Origin: an uncultured bacterium
Lineage (GTDB): Bacteria; Oederibacteriota; PGYV01; Palsa-1178
Length of the DNA stretch: 64,000 nucleotides
Assembly: GCA_937889595.1 (NCBI GenBank)
Contig: CALAOR010000089.1
Span: 28,548 to 92,547, forward strand
Direction of reading: 5' to 3'
A program made the position numbers and the translations under genes. The notes beneath the pieces are model-generated. The model did no database searches and was not told the DNA's origin. It saw only the letters and a program-made list of their open reading frames with translations. Positions 1,651 through 27,115 of this stretch are shown here, piece by piece. The stretch's first letter is position 1. Each line of letters begins with the position of its first letter.

Positions 1651-4269
1651 TTGCAAAAGTTAACAAAAAACTTAAGCCCCTACAAATGGCCTTTAATTCA
1701 TATAGTAATCCTGATTATATTTTTATCGCTTAACTCATGCAAAATGGCAAGCAATCCCACCGCTCCGCTTACTCCGACTTCTGTTGTAATAATACCTACT
1801 GATACTTTAATATCTACAATTGTAAATACACATACTCCCATAAACACGCCGGTTTCTACAAATACAATACAGACAACAAATACCAATACCCCGCAGGCAA
1901 CCGCAACAAATACACCTGTTTCAACATCAACCCTTGCTAAAACATCTACTGCTGCTGCTTCATTGACACAAACACAAACAGTGACTCAAACCATACCCGG
2001 GACATTAACGGGAACTCCGGCAGTAACGCTGACTGCCGCAGATACAATTACCATGGCCAATACATCAACCCAAACAGGCACGCCAACTTTCACTATTACC
2101 CCGACGCTATCCATAAACCACGGTAGCGCTATAGTCAATCCCACGATGGTTTATGGCATGACATCAGGCAACACTTTGAGCATCACTTACACGGCAGGGA
2201 CGCTTGGATGGACAACGGGAACTTTAAAGGTAACGCTGCCGCCGGGATGGTCGGCGCCCAGCCTTGATCCGGTTAAACAGGGATACTTCACAGTAACCTG
2301 TTCCGCAGGCACTATAGATTACAAAGCCTTTTCAGGGCAGGACATTATAATAACCGCAAGCAATATCCCGGCGCTTACCGGGACAATATCAATAACATAC
2401 GGAGACAAGTCATTCGGGAACGGCGCGGACACGGCGGGTTCGGGAACATATGATATAGCAATTGAGGTTGCTGAAAGCGGGACAGCGACTGTTCCCATAC
2501 AGTTTAATCCGCAGATACTCGTAATACCCGCCACCCTGACTCCGACGCTTACTCCGACAGTTACGCTTACACCGACCGTAATAATAGGCGAGGGATCTAT
2601 AACGCTGACGCCCGGGATAATCACAAGCGGAAGCACGGGAAACGTAATTACATTCAGCTACACGGCGGGCGCGTCTTCATGGACAAACGGCACGCTTAGG
2701 ATATCCATACCCCCGGGATGGAGTCCGCCTGACTTAAATACTTCAAGCGCGGGTTATGTATATGTGACCACAACGGGGACAAACTGGACCATGTCGGGTT
2801 CGGGCCAGGATATAGTTGTGAGCGTTACAGGACTGCAATCCGGAACGGGCACGATCACGGTTTTCTACGGATACCGAGGGTTCGGCGGGCCAGGGGCAAC
2901 GATCGCAGGACCCGGTATATTTACACTGGCAACAAGTACGGACCCTTTTGGTACAAATGTTTATCCCATCGCGGTATCGGCCCAGATAGTGATACTCGCG
3001 CCTACGCTTACATCAACCCTTACGGAAACTGTGACCAATACATTCACGGTAACACCCACGGTTACCGAGACGCTGACCTGGACGTTTTCATCGACCGACA
3101 CGGATACTACTACAATTACGCAGACCCACACAATAACCCCCACTTATACCGATACCCAGACCATTACCGAAACCGGCACATTTACCGCGACGCCTACAAT
3201 AACAGATACTGTTACGGTAACGCTGACTCCGACAGCCTACTGGACGCCAATCGGCGGAATGGGCGTATCGGATTCGACTGCCGATTACGTATCGCTTGCC
3301 ATAGATAAAAACAACGGTAATGTATTCGCCGGATACATGGACGCGGCAAAATCAAGCCGCGCCACAATGATGCAATATTCGGGAGCGGTATGGTCGCCGG
3401 TGGGGGCCAAAGGGTTCACATCGGGCCTGGCCTATGATATTTCAACCTTTTCGTTTTTTGACCAGTACCTGGCATACAGGGATGGCAGCGATTCTGACAG
3501 GGCAAAAGTTATGAAGTACTCGGCAGGTTCGTGGACGCTGCTCACAGGCGGGGCCGCTTCAGCCGCAGGCGCCTATAACACCGCTATTTTTTATGATTCT
3601 GACTACCTGTATCTTGCATACAGGGACGCGTCAGTTTCAGGCAGGGCAACGGTAAGAAGATATCACTATCTTATCCCTGGTTCATGGCTTGATGTGGGCG
3701 CGCCGGGATTTACGTCGGGTACCGCTTCAAGCATTTCATTATTTGTGGATAATAACGTGCCTTACGTGGCGTATATTGACTGGGCATATTCAAACAAGCT
3801 GAGCGTAATGAAATATGATTTTACCGGGTCGCAATGGATTCAGGTGGGCTTGCCCGGTTTCACTTCCGCCCCGGTTGATTATGTGTCTTTACAGGTTGCC
3901 GGCGGACCGGTTCCTTACGCGGCCTACTCTGACGCCTCGGTTTCCAATAAGATAACGGTTAATAGGTTTGACGGTTCAACATGGCTCCCGGTGGGCGGCG
4001 CGGGATTCTCTGTCGGCGCCGCAGCTTACATATCCATGTTCCTGGACGCGGCTGGCCAGCCTTCGGTTGCTTTTAGCGATGCGGGAATGGGCGGCAGGGC
4101 AGTCCTTATGAGATATAACGGGACTTCATGGGATCTAATTGCGGTATTATCATCAGGCTCCGCGAGTTATATATCAGCCGCGATTTACGGGGGCAAACCA
4201 TATGTGGCGTTTAAAGACGCGGCGAGCGGAGGGAAGCTGACGGTGATGAAGTTTGAGGGAGCGTATTAG
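1651..4269 (+). CDS. Large secreted/lipoprotein with T-rich linkers, two duplicated ~150-aa domains and a C-terminal 7-bladed beta-propeller-like repeat region
   Basis: The N-terminus is hydrophobic with a possible lipobox (LSLNSC). Two paralogous segments are present: TLKVTLPPGWSAPSLD... and TLRISIPPGWSPPDLN.... The C-terminal region carries seven ~45-aa repeats of the form (A/S)Y.S..xD...PYVAYxDxxxxxxxxVMKYxGxxWxxVGxxGFTSG. Confidence 0.55.
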   Translation: MQKLTKNLSPYKWPLIHIVILIIFLSLNSCKMASNPTAPLTPTSVVIIPTDTLISTIVNTHTPINTPVSTNTIQTTNTNTPQATATNTPVSTSTLAKTSTAAASLTQTQTVTQTIPGTLTGTPAVTLTAADTITMANTSTQTGTPTFTITPTLSINHGSAIVNPTMVYGMTSGNTLSITYTAGTLGWTTGTLKVTLPPGWSAPSLDPVKQGYFTVTCSAGTIDYKAFSGQDIIITASNIPALTGTISITYGDKSFGNGADTAGSGTYDIAIEVAESGTATVPIQFNPQILVIPATLTPTLTPTVTLTPTVIIGEGSITLTPGIITSGSTGNVITFSYTAGASSWTNGTLRISIPPGWSPPDLNTSSAGYVYVTTTGTNWTMSGSGQDIVVSVTGLQSGTGTITVFYGYRGFGGPGATIAGPGIFTLATSTDPFGTNVYPIAVSAQIVILAPTLTSTLTETVTNTFTVTPTVTETLTWTFSSTDTDTTTITQTHTITPTYTDTQTITETGTFTATPTITDTVTVTLTPTAYWTPIGGMGVSDSTADYVSLAIDKNNGNVFAGYMDAAKSSRATMMQYSGAVWSPVGAKGFTSGLAYDISTFSFFDQYLAYRDGSDSDRAKVMKYSAGSWTLLTGGAASAAGAYNTAIFYDSDYLYLAYRDASVSGRATVRRYHYLIPGSWLDVGAPGFTSGTASSISLFVDNNVPYVAYIDWAYSNKLSVMKYDFTGSQWIQVGLPGFTSAPVDYVSLQVAGGPVPYAAYSDASVSNKITVNRFDGSTWLPVGGAGFSVGAAAYISMFLDAAGQPSVAFSDAGMGGRAVLMRYNGTSWDLIAVLSSGSASYISAAIYGGKPYVAFKDAASGGKLTVMKFEGAY

Positions 4270-23819: not shown

Positions 23820-23894
23820 GTCCCCATCGTCTAACGGTTAGGACACCGCCCTTTCACGGCGGTAATGGGAGTTCGATTCTCCCTGAGGACGCCA
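23820..23894 (+). tRNA. tRNA-Glu (anticodon UUC), CCA encoded
   Basis: The cloverleaf was folded by eye. The anticodon loop is CTTTCAC and the T-arm is GGGAGTTCGATTCTCCC. There is one C-A mismatch in the acceptor stem. Confidence 0.8.
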
Positions 23895-23930
23895 AAAACG
23901 ATGGCCAGCGTAAGCTGGCCATCGTTTTTG
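23895..23930 (+). terminator. Perfect hairpin terminator after tRNA-Glu
   Basis: The stem is aaaaacgatggccagc-gtaa-gctggccatcgttttt. Confidence 0.7.
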
Positions 23931-23935
23931 GCGGA

Positions 23936-24211
23936 GCAGATTGAGCAGGTTGAACAGTTGAGCAGGTTGACGAACTAATCTAAACAAACTCAACTGTTTG
24001 CCGCACCACCACGCAATCTGCGGTCAATCTGCTCAACCTGCTCAATCTGTTCAGGTTTTGGTTTCAAAACGTAGGGGGTGATAATTCAAGTTTTCCATAT
24101 GTGTTGAGCGTCAAAACTCACTGAATTTTATAATCTAAAACTCATTCTTCCGGTTTCATTCCGGCTTGTTTTTTGTCCTCTCCACCTGCTCAATCTGTTC
24201 AACTGTTCGAC
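23936..24211. repeat. Array of direct and inverted ~12-bp TGAGCAGGTTGA / TGCTCAA(C/T)CTG motifs at the tRNA-proximal edge of the AT-rich island
   Basis: The left arm spans 23936-23972 and the imperfect inverse arm 24012-24056. A further copy lies at 24183-24211. Confidence 0.6.
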
Positions 24212-24234
24212 TTCAAAATATATGGGGTAAGTTT

Positions 24235-24522
24235 ATGTTCATGTTCGAAAACCTGCAGGTCTACCAAAAGTCCGTAGACCTTGCCGAAAAGATCACATCC
24301 ATCACCCACGATTTCCCGAAAGGCTACTTCTACTTAACGGACCAGCTAAACCGGGCGATTCTCTCCGTAACCCTGAACATCACCGAAGGCAACGGCCGTT
24401 GGCATAAAAACGACCGCAAACATTTTTTCTATATCTCCCGGGGTTCGACCCAGGAGTGTGTGCCTATTCTGGAACTGTGCAGGCGCAAGAAACTTATTTC
24501 AGATGAGGTTAATATGGAATGA
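24235..24522 (+). CDS. Four-helix-bundle protein (23S rRNA intervening-sequence protein family)
   Basis: The sequence MFENLQVYQKSVDLAEKI...LNRAILSVTLNITEGNGRWHKNDRKHFFYISRGSTQECVPILEL is typical of PF05635. Confidence 0.7.
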   Translation: MFMFENLQVYQKSVDLAEKITSITHDFPKGYFYLTDQLNRAILSVTLNITEGNGRWHKNDRKHFFYISRGSTQECVPILELCRRKKLISDEVNME

Positions 24523-24644
24523 AAATAGGCTCGGAAAACTACAAAAACATTAAAGCAAAGGTCAAATTTTGCCGATAATGGTATAACGATGAAGTAGGCA
24601 CCACAATTGGTTGACTAATTGTCTAACTTATTGTAATATTCTTT

Positions 24645-25064
24645 ATGGGACAAATAAGGATAGATACAAAAAGTTATCAAAACATTGACTTGGCACGATA
24701 TCATTTTAGAAAGACACATAATTACTTTAATGTAGTGATAAGTAATATGTATTATGGAGTATTTCAACTAATAAAGCATAAGCTATATAATTGGTATATT
24801 AACAATCATCGCTCAACAAAAGAAGTTGATTTTTTTAAACACAGTGATATCAAAACAAGACTTAAAGAATATGCATTAGATAAACAGGTTGCAGGATATG
24901 CACCTCAAATACAAACAAGGGTTGAAGATTATTTGTATTCTCTTCGAGAAACGAGAAGAGTATCAGATTATCACTTTACAAGTCCTATCATAGAACACGA
25001 GGAATTTAGAACTTTACTGGTAAAAAGTAGATTTATAATAGAGGTAATGAATAAAATATTTTAG
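24645..25064 (+). CDS. Small alpha-helical protein of unknown function with a C-terminal Rx4-6H motif (possible HEPN-like domain); first gene of a tight three-gene cassette
   Basis: It is 139 aa and AT-rich, with the motif RETRRVSDYH near the C-terminus. No other recognisable family. Confidence 0.4.
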   Translation: MGQIRIDTKSYQNIDLARYHFRKTHNYFNVVISNMYYGVFQLIKHKLYNWYINNHRSTKEVDFFKHSDIKTRLKEYALDKQVAGYAPQIQTRVEDYLYSLRETRRVSDYHFTSPIIEHEEFRTLLVKSRFIIEVMNKIF

Positions 25065-25071
25065 GAGAATT

Positions 25072-25581
25072 ATGAGAAAAAATGATGCAGTGATAAGCCG
25101 AATAAAGGATGAATTAAAGGAAAAGTTTAGCCCTAAAAAGTTAGTTTCTAAATTTGATTCTGATTCGCAAGAATACGTTATAATGGTTGATAGAAAAACC
25201 ATTAGGCGTAAAGATTTTGCAGAATGGAGCGTTAGGCTATTAGATGATGTTAGAAAAATGAATATTAATTTAGTTTTCACGTCACATATTCCCGTGGAAA
25301 CTTTAACCGAATATAAGAAGGTTGGTATATATTCGGAAATGTTAAAAACAATTTGGAGTTCTTTCGAAAAGTTAGAAAAAGTAGATGTAAAATTAGAGTT
25401 TGTTTCGGAAAATGTATCAGGTGACTATGGATGGAATAAGTTTTTGGTAAAAAGCCAGATGAAAACTCAAAATAAAATTGCAACGAATGATTTTGGATTA
25501 AATAGAGTGGAAGTTAAAAAAGTTATCAATACGGAATTAACAACGATTAAATTTCAAAGGGACTTTGCGGTGGCGGCATAA
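25072..25581 (+). CDS. Hypothetical protein, second gene of the cassette
   Basis: It is 169 aa. An RBS (aggag) lies 7 nt after the upstream stop, and its stop overlaps the start of the next gene. Confidence 0.45.
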   Translation: MRKNDAVISRIKDELKEKFSPKKLVSKFDSDSQEYVIMVDRKTIRRKDFAEWSVRLLDDVRKMNINLVFTSHIPVETLTEYKKVGIYSEMLKTIWSSFEKLEKVDVKLEFVSENVSGDYGWNKFLVKSQMKTQNKIATNDFGLNRVEVKKVINTELTTIKFQRDFAVAA

Positions 25582-26057
25582 TGTCTGAAAACCAGAATAA
25601 CAATATCAATATAAGCACAATACTTTTAGAAGAGTTAGAATTTAAGCGTAAACCAAACGTGCCTGATTATTTAATTGATGCATCGAAGTTTGATGCAGGT
25701 AAATTAGATTTTGCAACGTCGATAGAAAGGGCATTCTCCGAAAAAGGGGATGCGTTAATATTAAGAGTTAGAATTGCGATTACTGAAAAGGATGTTGCAG
25801 AACCGACGTTTAATCTTGTCTGTAAGATGGTTGGAATATTTAGTCAGGAAGAATCAGGCAGTATTTCTCTTGAAAAATTTGCCGAATATAATGCACCTGC
25901 TATAATAATTCCTTATATGAGAGAAGTCATAAGCAGTATATCAACGAAAGCAGGAATAATACCAATTATAATTCCACCACTAAATTTAATTAAAATGATA
26001 AATGAAGCAAAGACCATTCCTGGTGACGATAAGAAATTAATGCAAGATAAAAAATAA
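25581..26057 (+). CDS. Hypothetical protein, third gene of the cassette
   Basis: It is 158 aa. Its start overlaps the previous stop in a TAATG arrangement. Confidence 0.45.
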   Translation: MSENQNNNINISTILLEELEFKRKPNVPDYLIDASKFDAGKLDFATSIERAFSEKGDALILRVRIAITEKDVAEPTFNLVCKMVGIFSQEESGSISLEKFAEYNAPAIIIPYMREVISSISTKAGIIPIIIPPLNLIKMINEAKTIPGDDKKLMQDKK

Positions 26058-26144
26058 TTCCGATAGTCTATTATATAAGATAATCGGTTTCTCCGTCCTC
26101 ATCCAGTTGCGAATGTCGTCTATCTTGGAACGCCAATACAGAAG

Positions 26145-26177
26145 AGCCGTTTTGTCACAAGCAGAACGGCTTTTTTT
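26145..26177 (+). terminator. Rho-independent terminator downstream of the three-gene cassette
   Basis: The hairpin gccgttttgtcacaagcagaacggc is followed by a T-run. Confidence 0.55.
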
Positions 26178-26253
26178 CGTTATGGGACAAGGTTAATCCA
26201 AATAGACAAAAGTTCAAGTTTTATCCATCAAAACAGACAGGCAGACCGACCGA

Positions 26254-26311
26254 CCAACCAACCAACCAACCAACCAACCAACCAACCAACCAACCAACCA
26301 ACCAACCAACA
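26254..26311. repeat. Tetranucleotide microsatellite, (CCAA)~14
   Basis: ccaaccaacc... runs uninterrupted for about 56 nt, preceded by (gacc)3. Confidence 0.9.
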
Positions 26312-26437
26312 CTCGAACTTTAACCTTGCCTTTGTTATTTGTGGTGGCAAAATATGAATAGGATGAGAAATAAAGGGGAAAAATTAATAATCAACTCACA
26401 CCGGCTCACCCATCACATATTCGCTGGAGGCTTATAA

Positions 26438-27073
26438 ATGGAAATAAAAAATATGGTAATTATTGTTCTTTTATCAGTTTGTATTTTTATTTCTTGTCAG
26501 GGGAAGGATAAAAAGGTAAAACAAGCAGAGAATAATCAGTCAAAAAATAACCAGCATCTTTATACGGATATAACCCGGGTTGAAGAGGATATTCCAACTC
26601 AAGTTGAAAATGCTACTCCAACAGAAAACAAACAATATACTATTAAAGGCATTGAACAAATTCGTAACGACATTTTAAAAGAATCAGTACTCAATTTCTG
26701 TAAATTTACCAAAAAGCAAAATTACTCGGCTATTTATAAATATTTGTCAAAGGGTTATTTTGAATTACTACCTTCTAAGACTAAAATTAAGACAGCCAAT
26801 CAGTATATCGATTTTATGCGTAATTCATCGGAGATGGAAGAGACAAAAACTGACAAATTTTTGAAAATTATGAGCGTGCAATACATTGATGTCGCAACGG
26901 CCTATGTTGAAATTGTAAGCGAAGCGATTAACGAAGGTGACTATCATAAAGTTAAATCGATTTATGTTTTTAAAATGGAAAATGGAATATGGAAATTTGA
27001 CGGCATAGTTTTAAAAAGCATTAAAATCATTAAAACCATTCTTAATCGAGATATGGAAGAAACCCCTATGTAA
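26438..27073 (+). CDS. Lipoprotein of unknown function (possible NTF2-like/DUF4878-type fold)
   Basis: A signal peptide with lipobox (FISC) is present and the gene is AT-rich. The C-terminal segment reads DYHKVKSIYVFKMENGIWKFDGIVL. Confidence 0.4.
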   Translation: MEIKNMVIIVLLSVCIFISCQGKDKKVKQAENNQSKNNQHLYTDITRVEEDIPTQVENATPTENKQYTIKGIEQIRNDILKESVLNFCKFTKKQNYSAIYKYLSKGYFELLPSKTKIKTANQYIDFMRNSSEMEETKTDKFLKIMSVQYIDVATAYVEIVSEAINEGDYHKVKSIYVFKMENGIWKFDGIVLKSIKIIKTILNRDMEETPM

Positions 27074-27115
27074 GTTTACAATCAAGCCAACTGCAAATAA
27101 AAAACAAAGGAGCCT

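Follow-up and report, generated by a model that had tools for sequence, protein, structure and literature searches.

A three-gene cassette joining a HEPN-fold protein to a SecB-like chaperone: a probable toxin-antitoxin-chaperone module from an uncultured bacterium of the Oederibacteriota

Gene content and composition of the cassette

A stretch of 64,000 nucleotides from an uncultured bacterium of the Oederibacteriota (GenBank assembly GCA_937889595.1, contig CALAOR010000089.1, positions 28,548 to 92,547 of the forward strand; the whole stretch is called the window below) carries three small genes in tandem, P1, P2 and P3. All three lie on the forward (+) strand, as do the promoter, the terminator and the motifs described with them. 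P1 (24645..25064) is an open reading frame (ORF) with an ATG start which codes for 139 aa, a protein with a HEPN fold, probably of the PF05168/AF0298 (HEPN-T) type, and the candidate toxin. P2 (25072..25581) codes for 169 aa, the candidate antitoxin. P3 (25581..26057) codes for 158 aa, a CmdC-like member of the SecB-like chaperones (SecB-TA) of toxin-antitoxin-chaperone (TAC) systems. Public annotation calls P3 a 'preprotein translocase subunit SecB' and has only 'hypothetical protein' for P1 and P2; PADLOC did not recognise the trio as a system.

The genes are tightly coupled. P1 and P2 are separated by 7 nt with an AGGAG overlapping the P1 stop codon, and the stop of P2 and the start of P3 share one base (TAATG). 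This agrees with the original prediction for this DNA, which had described two co-translated proteins downstream of a possible HEPN-like RNase. A candidate σ70-like promoter, TTGACT-17-TAATAT, is located immediately 5' of P1 (24611..24639; 9 of 12 consensus positions in a scan). It is a weak candidate as the region is no richer in sites of this kind than shuffled sequences, and no obvious Shine-Dalgarno sequence precedes the ATG of P1. The operon is closed by an intrinsic-terminator-like hairpin with a U-run (26138..26177). RNA folding gave a ΔG of -22 kcal/mol and a z-score of -5.95, and none of 200 shuffles was equally stable. The GC content is about 0.30 over positions 24550-27100 compared to about 0.47 in the flanks, i.e. 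the composition of the cassette is foreign. The 128 nt upstream of P1 are not structured (z -0.64) and have no Rfam match; on these grounds an RNA antitoxin or another non-coding RNA in the flanks of the cassette was rejected as unlikely.

A 15-nt direct repeat, 14 of 15 positions identical, flanks the three genes. One copy (TTCTTTATGGGACAA, 24639-24653) overlaps the start codon of P1, the other (TTCGTTATGGGACAA, 26176-26190) is directly 3' of the terminator. The repeat could be an insertion scar or a chance event; for the 3.8-kb region, chance predicts roughly 0.3 pairs of this kind.

P1 is a divergent HEPN protein

Relatives of P1 were difficult to find. Word-indexed searches with P1 and P2 recovered only the queries themselves. 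An exhaustive search with phmmer among 1.8 billion representatives yielded five true relatives of P1 with 25-39% identity, a profile search added three more, and three further ones were reached via the chaperone at loci from a SecB alignment. A further entry of the phmmer list, P0004, was discarded as a repeat-protein artefact. The resulting family alignment (A5) comprises 12 sequences with 17-39% identity. Members of the family are known from little-studied lineages, namely Bacteroidota, Ca. Wallbacteria and Ca. Edwardsbacteria, and from soil metagenomes.

Six residues are invariant in all 12 sequences: Y36, Y37, H66, R104, D108 and Y109. Y36-Y37 (24750..24755) are in helix 2 and align with the YYA.F motif of AF0298 and of the solved PF05168 protein 9xbd in profile alignments. 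H66 (24840..24842) belongs to the insert which joins HEPN helices 2 and 3; it aligns with a His of 9xbd and is proposed as an alternative catalytic His. R104-x3-D108-Y109 (24954..24971), at the C-terminus of helix 3, is the form in which the family conserves the HEPN motif, and it aligns with lRnrSDYd of 9xbd. The predicted structure of P1 has six helices (mean pLDDT 87.4) and contains the four-helix up-and-down core of HEPN domains. In this model the insert helix 66-79 begins at H66, and helix 3 spans residues 87-109 with R104-x3-D108-Y109 at its end, directly preceding the loop to helix 4.

Assignment to the PF05168/AF0298 type came from the family. At the Pfam cut-off of 22 bits for PF05168, the homologue P0011 scored 26.4, and P0006 (20.6) and P0010 (20.1) were just below; the P1 of the window itself gave no match. 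Single-sequence and early profile searches of the PDB sequences returned nothing significant. Only the 12-sequence profile reached 9xbd, at E 9e-4. P1 has a HEPN (RNase-type) fold and is probably of the PF05168/AF0298 type. For the AF0298-type HEPN-T/AbiV variant a second strongly conserved His has been described which precedes the motif on its N-terminal side and is part of the insert linking helices 2 and 3; it could form an alternative active site, and AF0298 and AbiV were grouped as alternative-His variants (Anantharaman et al., 2013; PMC3710099). The sequence pattern of P1, H66 combined with R104-x3-D108-Y109, fits such a variant in which the Arg is kept. Literature searches for PDB 9XBD and 9XBC, the latter a deposited Y-to-F variant of this closest solved HEPN, brought up nothing relevant, and for UPF0332/AF0298 no functional study was found.

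The family is also linked to phages. The phage family phrog_5176, of unknown function, was matched by 8 of the 12 members (best E 1.6e-8); the match of P1 itself is weak. Therefore, relatives of this HEPN branch are phage-encoded.

The original prediction had come to a HEPN-like P1 by a different route, and its conclusion is largely right while the reason offered is not. It had quoted YLYSLRETRRVSDYHFTSPIIEHEEF as the end of the protein; the peptide is present, yet 18 further residues follow. It had read RRVSDYH as the catalytic Rx4-6H signature of HEPN domains. The string indeed fits (R104 to H110, 24954-24974). However, at least one Rx4-6H match occurs in 82% of 20,000 shuffles of P1, which has 11 Arg and 7 His; a second match is located in P1 itself at residue 18, and 25 of the 91 ORFs of at least 100 aa in the window contain one. 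Because such matches are no commoner than expected by chance, the string alone is no evidence. Conservation, which had been suggested as a check, divided the pair: R104 is invariant, and H110 (24972..24974) is not conserved, position 110 reading H, D, H, G, D, E, E, E, S, K, K and Y in the 12 sequences. Consequently, helix 3 does not end in a conserved Rx4-6H. The all-helical character was borne out by the model, and so was the noted wealth of aromatic and Lys residues by the composition (12 Tyr, 9 Phe and 11 Lys).

A candidate antitoxin with an Ala-Ala terminus

P2 had no match in any family library searched (Pfam, PADLOC, NCBIfam). Its homologues occupy the same operon position. By comparison with them, residues 1-69 of P2 (25072-25278) are a conserved N-terminal domain, and residues 70-169 (25279-25578) are a variable tail rich in aromatic residues. 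In the homologues the shared domain comprises about 70 aa; the tails have lengths of 47-100 aa, cannot be aligned and contain 10-14% aromatic residues. All eight complete homologues end in Ala-Ala-COOH. In P2 this pair (25573..25578) is a candidate ClpX degron. An Ala-Ala ending is found in only 2 of 91 ORFs of the window. A single-sequence AlphaFold2 model predicted an α/β fold for the N-terminal domain with moderate confidence (pLDDT about 72) and values below 50 for the tail. Fold matches of this model were not interpretable, and a nucleotidyltransferase was not among them. P2 has no signal peptide. It has no nucleotidyltransferase features either, and a role as a minimal nucleotidyltransferase (MNT) was rejected.

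Such an end is known from TAC antitoxins. The ChAD of CmdA ends in Ala-Ala, a proven ClpX degron, and exchange of Ala-Ala for Asp-Asp abolishes CmdTA toxicity. An aliphatic C-terminal ClpX degron, Val-Ala, is present in HigA1 from M. tuberculosis; it is lacking in E. coli HigA and is, therefore, not universal. ChAD tails contact the SecB tetramer via spaced aromatic residues. To judge from its sequence, P2 shares with TAC antitoxins a candidate aliphatic degron at the C-terminus.

The chaperone and its conserved gene neighbours

P3 matched Pfam SecB at E 2.3e-10 and, better, the PADLOC model PD-T4-9_C, which corresponds to CmdC, at E 3.3e-14. A P3 profile also matched the SecB structures of E. 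coli and H. influenzae (E about 5e-6). With the NCBIfam SecB equivalog P3 scored 38 bits, the cut-off being 102.8. Because it remains so far below the equivalog cut-off, P3 is SecB-like and not a housekeeping SecB.

The order P1-P2-SecB, with ORFs which overlap or nearly abut, is present in seven distinct loci from several phyla. These are the window (identical with L001/L002), a metagenome-assembled genome (MAG) of Ca. Wallbacteria (L011), Raineya orbicola (L012; NZ_NKXO01000022.1, 3180-4387), a MAG of Ca. Edwardsbacteria (L013), and L003/L004/L016, L007/L008 and L019. The partial contigs L010 and L018 are compatible with this order. All close relatives of P3 with readable upstream DNA are accompanied by genes for P1 and P2. 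SecB-like genes that are more distant (L014, L017) come after CmdT-like toxins instead, and these two loci served as controls. L014 (398-1718, IMGVR_UViG_3300009870_001189) and L017 (1488-2824) each code for a CmdT-like toxin, a short CmdA-like antitoxin and a SecB-like chaperone, and their antitoxins also end in Ala-Ala, as LAA or GAA. L014 is a viral contig; about 1.2 kb downstream, in opposite orientation, it has a 504-aa ORF which by sequence resembles a terminase large subunit.

The genomic contexts of the cassette vary. In Raineya orbicola it sits inside the ATP synthase operon, with atpB (subunit a) on one side and atpE (subunit c) on the other; P1 starts 1 nt past the atpB stop and no upstream spacer is present. 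In L005 a restriction-modification specificity gene with a TaqI_C domain (3-812) adjoins a homologous cassette, and in L019 a Transposase_mut gene and a GIY-YIG gene do so (159-1379, 3810-4133). These neighbours hint at a defence or mobile context elsewhere. The varied contexts are the behaviour of a small mobile module.

Neighbourhood in the window

In the window the cassette is located about 750 nt downstream of a tRNA-Glu. This tRNA-Glu(TTC) gene (23820-23894) lies downstream of a glycogen synthase gene, and behind it comes a perfect inverted repeat of 20 nt (23890-23933). Several direct and inverted GAGCAGRTTGAGCAGGTTGA-like elements are spread over 23890-24211 and extend into the 5' part of the following ORF. 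The tRNA-Glu/repeat region (23820-24211) may be an integration hot spot. The gene directly upstream of the cassette (24166-24522; in the JGI call the equivalent is 24235-24522) codes for a 23S rRNA-intervening-sequence/four-helix-bundle protein (PF05635, E 1e-23; TIGR02436). It has a host-like GC content and is absent from the homologous loci.

Between the terminator of the cassette and the next ORF is a (CCAA)n microsatellite (26245-26316) with about 15 units after CCGA variants. Its length is polymorphic; the metagenome contig L002 has one extra unit, a CCAAG variant, compared to the window and L001. The ORF beyond it (26438-27073, 211 aa, GC about 0.31) has a lipoprotein-like signal (…CIFISC) and weak similarity to DUF4878/DUF6550. 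Its composition is foreign like that of the cassette, and it is not conserved beside homologous cassettes. A bacterial serpin gene (PF00079, 27524-28900) with an N-terminal signal/lipoprotein-like region follows 1.5 kb downstream of the cassette, and its neighbours are genes for an α-amylase, a GH94 enzyme and glycogen synthase.

Proposed function and rival explanations

The coupled three-gene order with a SecB-like chaperone, the HEPN fold of P1 and the conserved end of P2 make it very likely that the cassette is a module of the TAC type whose first gene codes for a HEPN fold. That the HEPN protein serves as the toxin of a tripartite TAC module, i.e. the reading as a whole, we consider fairly likely. 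P1 would then be a toxin, most likely a metal-independent RNase, whose active site would comprise R104 and the upstream H66 in the vicinity of D108 and Y109. P2 would bind and neutralise P1 by way of its N-terminal domain, and its aromatic-rich tail may act as a ChAD-like element with an Ala-Ala ClpX degron. P3 would hold this tail and shield P2 from aggregation and from ClpXP, and is the likely sensor. By analogy to CmdTAC and HigBAC, P3 might be titrated off by a newly made phage structural protein. P2 would be degraded, and freed P1 would cleave RNA such that the infection is aborted. The HEPN fold, the invariant residues, the homology of P3 to SecB, the Ala-Ala ends and the gene order are results of the present analysis; the toxin assignment, the RNase chemistry, the ClpXP dependence and the sensing of phage are modelled on CmdTAC, HigBAC and AbiV. 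The cassette probably acts in phage defence. In its most specific form the proposal is tentative: an undescribed anti-phage family with a SecB-like sensor, a ClpX-degradable antitoxin of a new family, and a PF05168/AF0298-type HEPN toxin which cuts RNA via His66/Arg104 (Asp108/Tyr109).

Several points weigh against a HEPN toxin of this kind. P1 had no match in Pfam, NCBIfam or PADLOC, and a Foldseek search against the PDB returned nothing significant. The canonical Rx4-6H His is missing from most members of the family, and in the literature searched no demonstration of RNase activity of AF0298-type HEPN-T domains was found. The proposed proximity of H66 to R104 derives from topology and literature, and the predicted disorder of the P2 tail from a single-sequence model. 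The locus in the window is outside any recognisable defence island, with carbohydrate-metabolism genes as neighbours.

Could P1 be catalytically inactive? A HEPN domain may be an RNA or nucleotide binder or a scaffold; any toxicity would then be due to stoichiometric RNA binding or to the N-terminal domain of P2. This is unlikely, though it deserves some weight. Six polar or aromatic residues have remained invariant at identities down to 17% and, therefore, an active site is favoured over a scaffold. P2 has the hallmarks of an antitoxin, namely a variable tail, the candidate Ala-Ala degron and the position beside SecB, and its model is too poor for meaningful fold matches. Alternatively, P1 might be a canonical HEPN RNase with its catalytic pair in RRVSDYH, R104 or R105 together with H110. 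The match coincides with the C-terminus of helix 3, the usual place of the canonical motif, and P0005 also has a His at position 110. Yet only these two of the 12 sequences do, while H66, D108 and Y109 are invariant, and 9xbd has an Asp at the equivalent position; considering also how often shuffled sequences contain the motif, this is quite improbable. A further proposal is a type VII HEPN-MNT-like pair in which P2 is a divergent nucleotidyltransferase which AMPylates Tyr109 and SecB is an accessory. An invariant Tyr does stand beside the motif as in the RX4HXY of HepT (7ae2, H107A-Y109F), and 9xbc is a deposited Y-to-F variant of the closest solved HEPN. Considering that P2 is devoid of nucleotidyltransferase features, we regard such a pair as very improbable.

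Finally, the cassette may not be a toxin system at all. P3 would serve as a chaperone of general use or of export, as its public name implies, and P1 and P2 would be clients or unrelated neighbours in a window of metabolic genes. This is improbable: the bit score of P3 is far from that of a SecB equivalog and CmdC is matched better, the three genes stay together across phyla, are translationally coupled and have a foreign GC content, the Raineya cassette interrupts an atp operon, and P2 has a degron-like end and no signal peptide. Regulation by an AbiV-like RNA antitoxin is likewise unlikely given the unstructured upstream region and the Raineya copy, in which there is no spacer to code for it.

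A HEPN-toxin TAC, which we favour, would be of interest in several respects. TACs, with a chaperone as their sensor, form an emerging class of phage defence, and a HEPN-based TAC would extend TAC modularity to the most widespread superfamily of RNase toxins. In its most specific form the proposal would also give this HEPN branch a biological role and a protein antitoxin other than an MNT, each for the first time. The P1 cassette would be a tractable system to ask whether the alternative-His site of HEPN-T is catalytic. In addition, profiles derived from the alignments could improve the annotation of defence systems.

Comparison with known systems

PD-T4-9 is CmdTAC, an anti-phage TAC system of E. 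coli. There, the tail of CmdA is bound by CmdC; once the T4 capsid protein has displaced this chaperone, CmdA is broken down by ClpP and the toxin is freed. The cassette has the same three-gene order of toxin, antitoxin and SecB-like chaperone, P3 matches the PADLOC CmdC models, and P2 is similar to CmdA in its long, presumably poorly structured tail with an Ala-Ala end. However, P1 has a HEPN fold whereas CmdT is an ADP-ribosyltransferase. The CmdT model PD-T4-9_A did not match P1 or three of its homologues, while it detected the control toxin of L014 at E 3.4e-12; CmdTAC membership was thus ruled out. In contrast to CmdA, the N-terminal domain of P2 is predicted as α/β and not as two helices, and P2 has no detectable similarity to the CmdA models.

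With the classical TACs, HigBAC of M. tuberculosis and E. coli, MqsRAC and HicAB-SecB, the cassette shares a SecB-TA chaperone in third position and a modular architecture; the variable, aromatic-containing C-terminal extension of its candidate antitoxin may correspond to their ChADs. Only four types of TAC toxin have been described (HigB, MqsR, HicA and CmdT). The published toxin-antitoxin units are HigBA, MqsRA and HicAB plus CmdTA, and neither a HEPN toxin nor the P2 antitoxin family is among them. A full-text search of the open-access literature found no paper on a HEPN toxin in a TAC, and the Nature paper on CmdTAC does not mention HEPN.

Compared to HEPN-T/PF05168 proteins of the AF0298 type (UPF0332; PDB 2hsb; 9xbd) the P1 family is very divergent and has longer inserts, and its proposed partner is a SecB-dependent protein antitoxin instead of an MNT. 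HepT of the type VII system HepT-MntA differs from P1; it belongs to the DUF86 branch, has the canonical RX4HXY and is neutralised by MNT AMPylation. An adjacent MNT is absent from the P1-P2-P3 locus. AbiV from Lactococcus is an anti-phage, EDTA-insensitive RNase that loses activity upon mutation of the motif Arg. Like P1 it is a HEPN protein of the alternative-His group, and the two have their nearest structures in common, 2hsb (AF0298), 1ufb (TT1696) and 3o10 (sacsin). It differs from P1 in length (201 versus 139 aa) and in having an RNA antitoxin (type III), and P1 has no PADLOC AbiV match. Taken together, the TAC architecture and its logic are already known and the toxin-antitoxin pair is new; the cassette fits existing concepts and does not overturn them.
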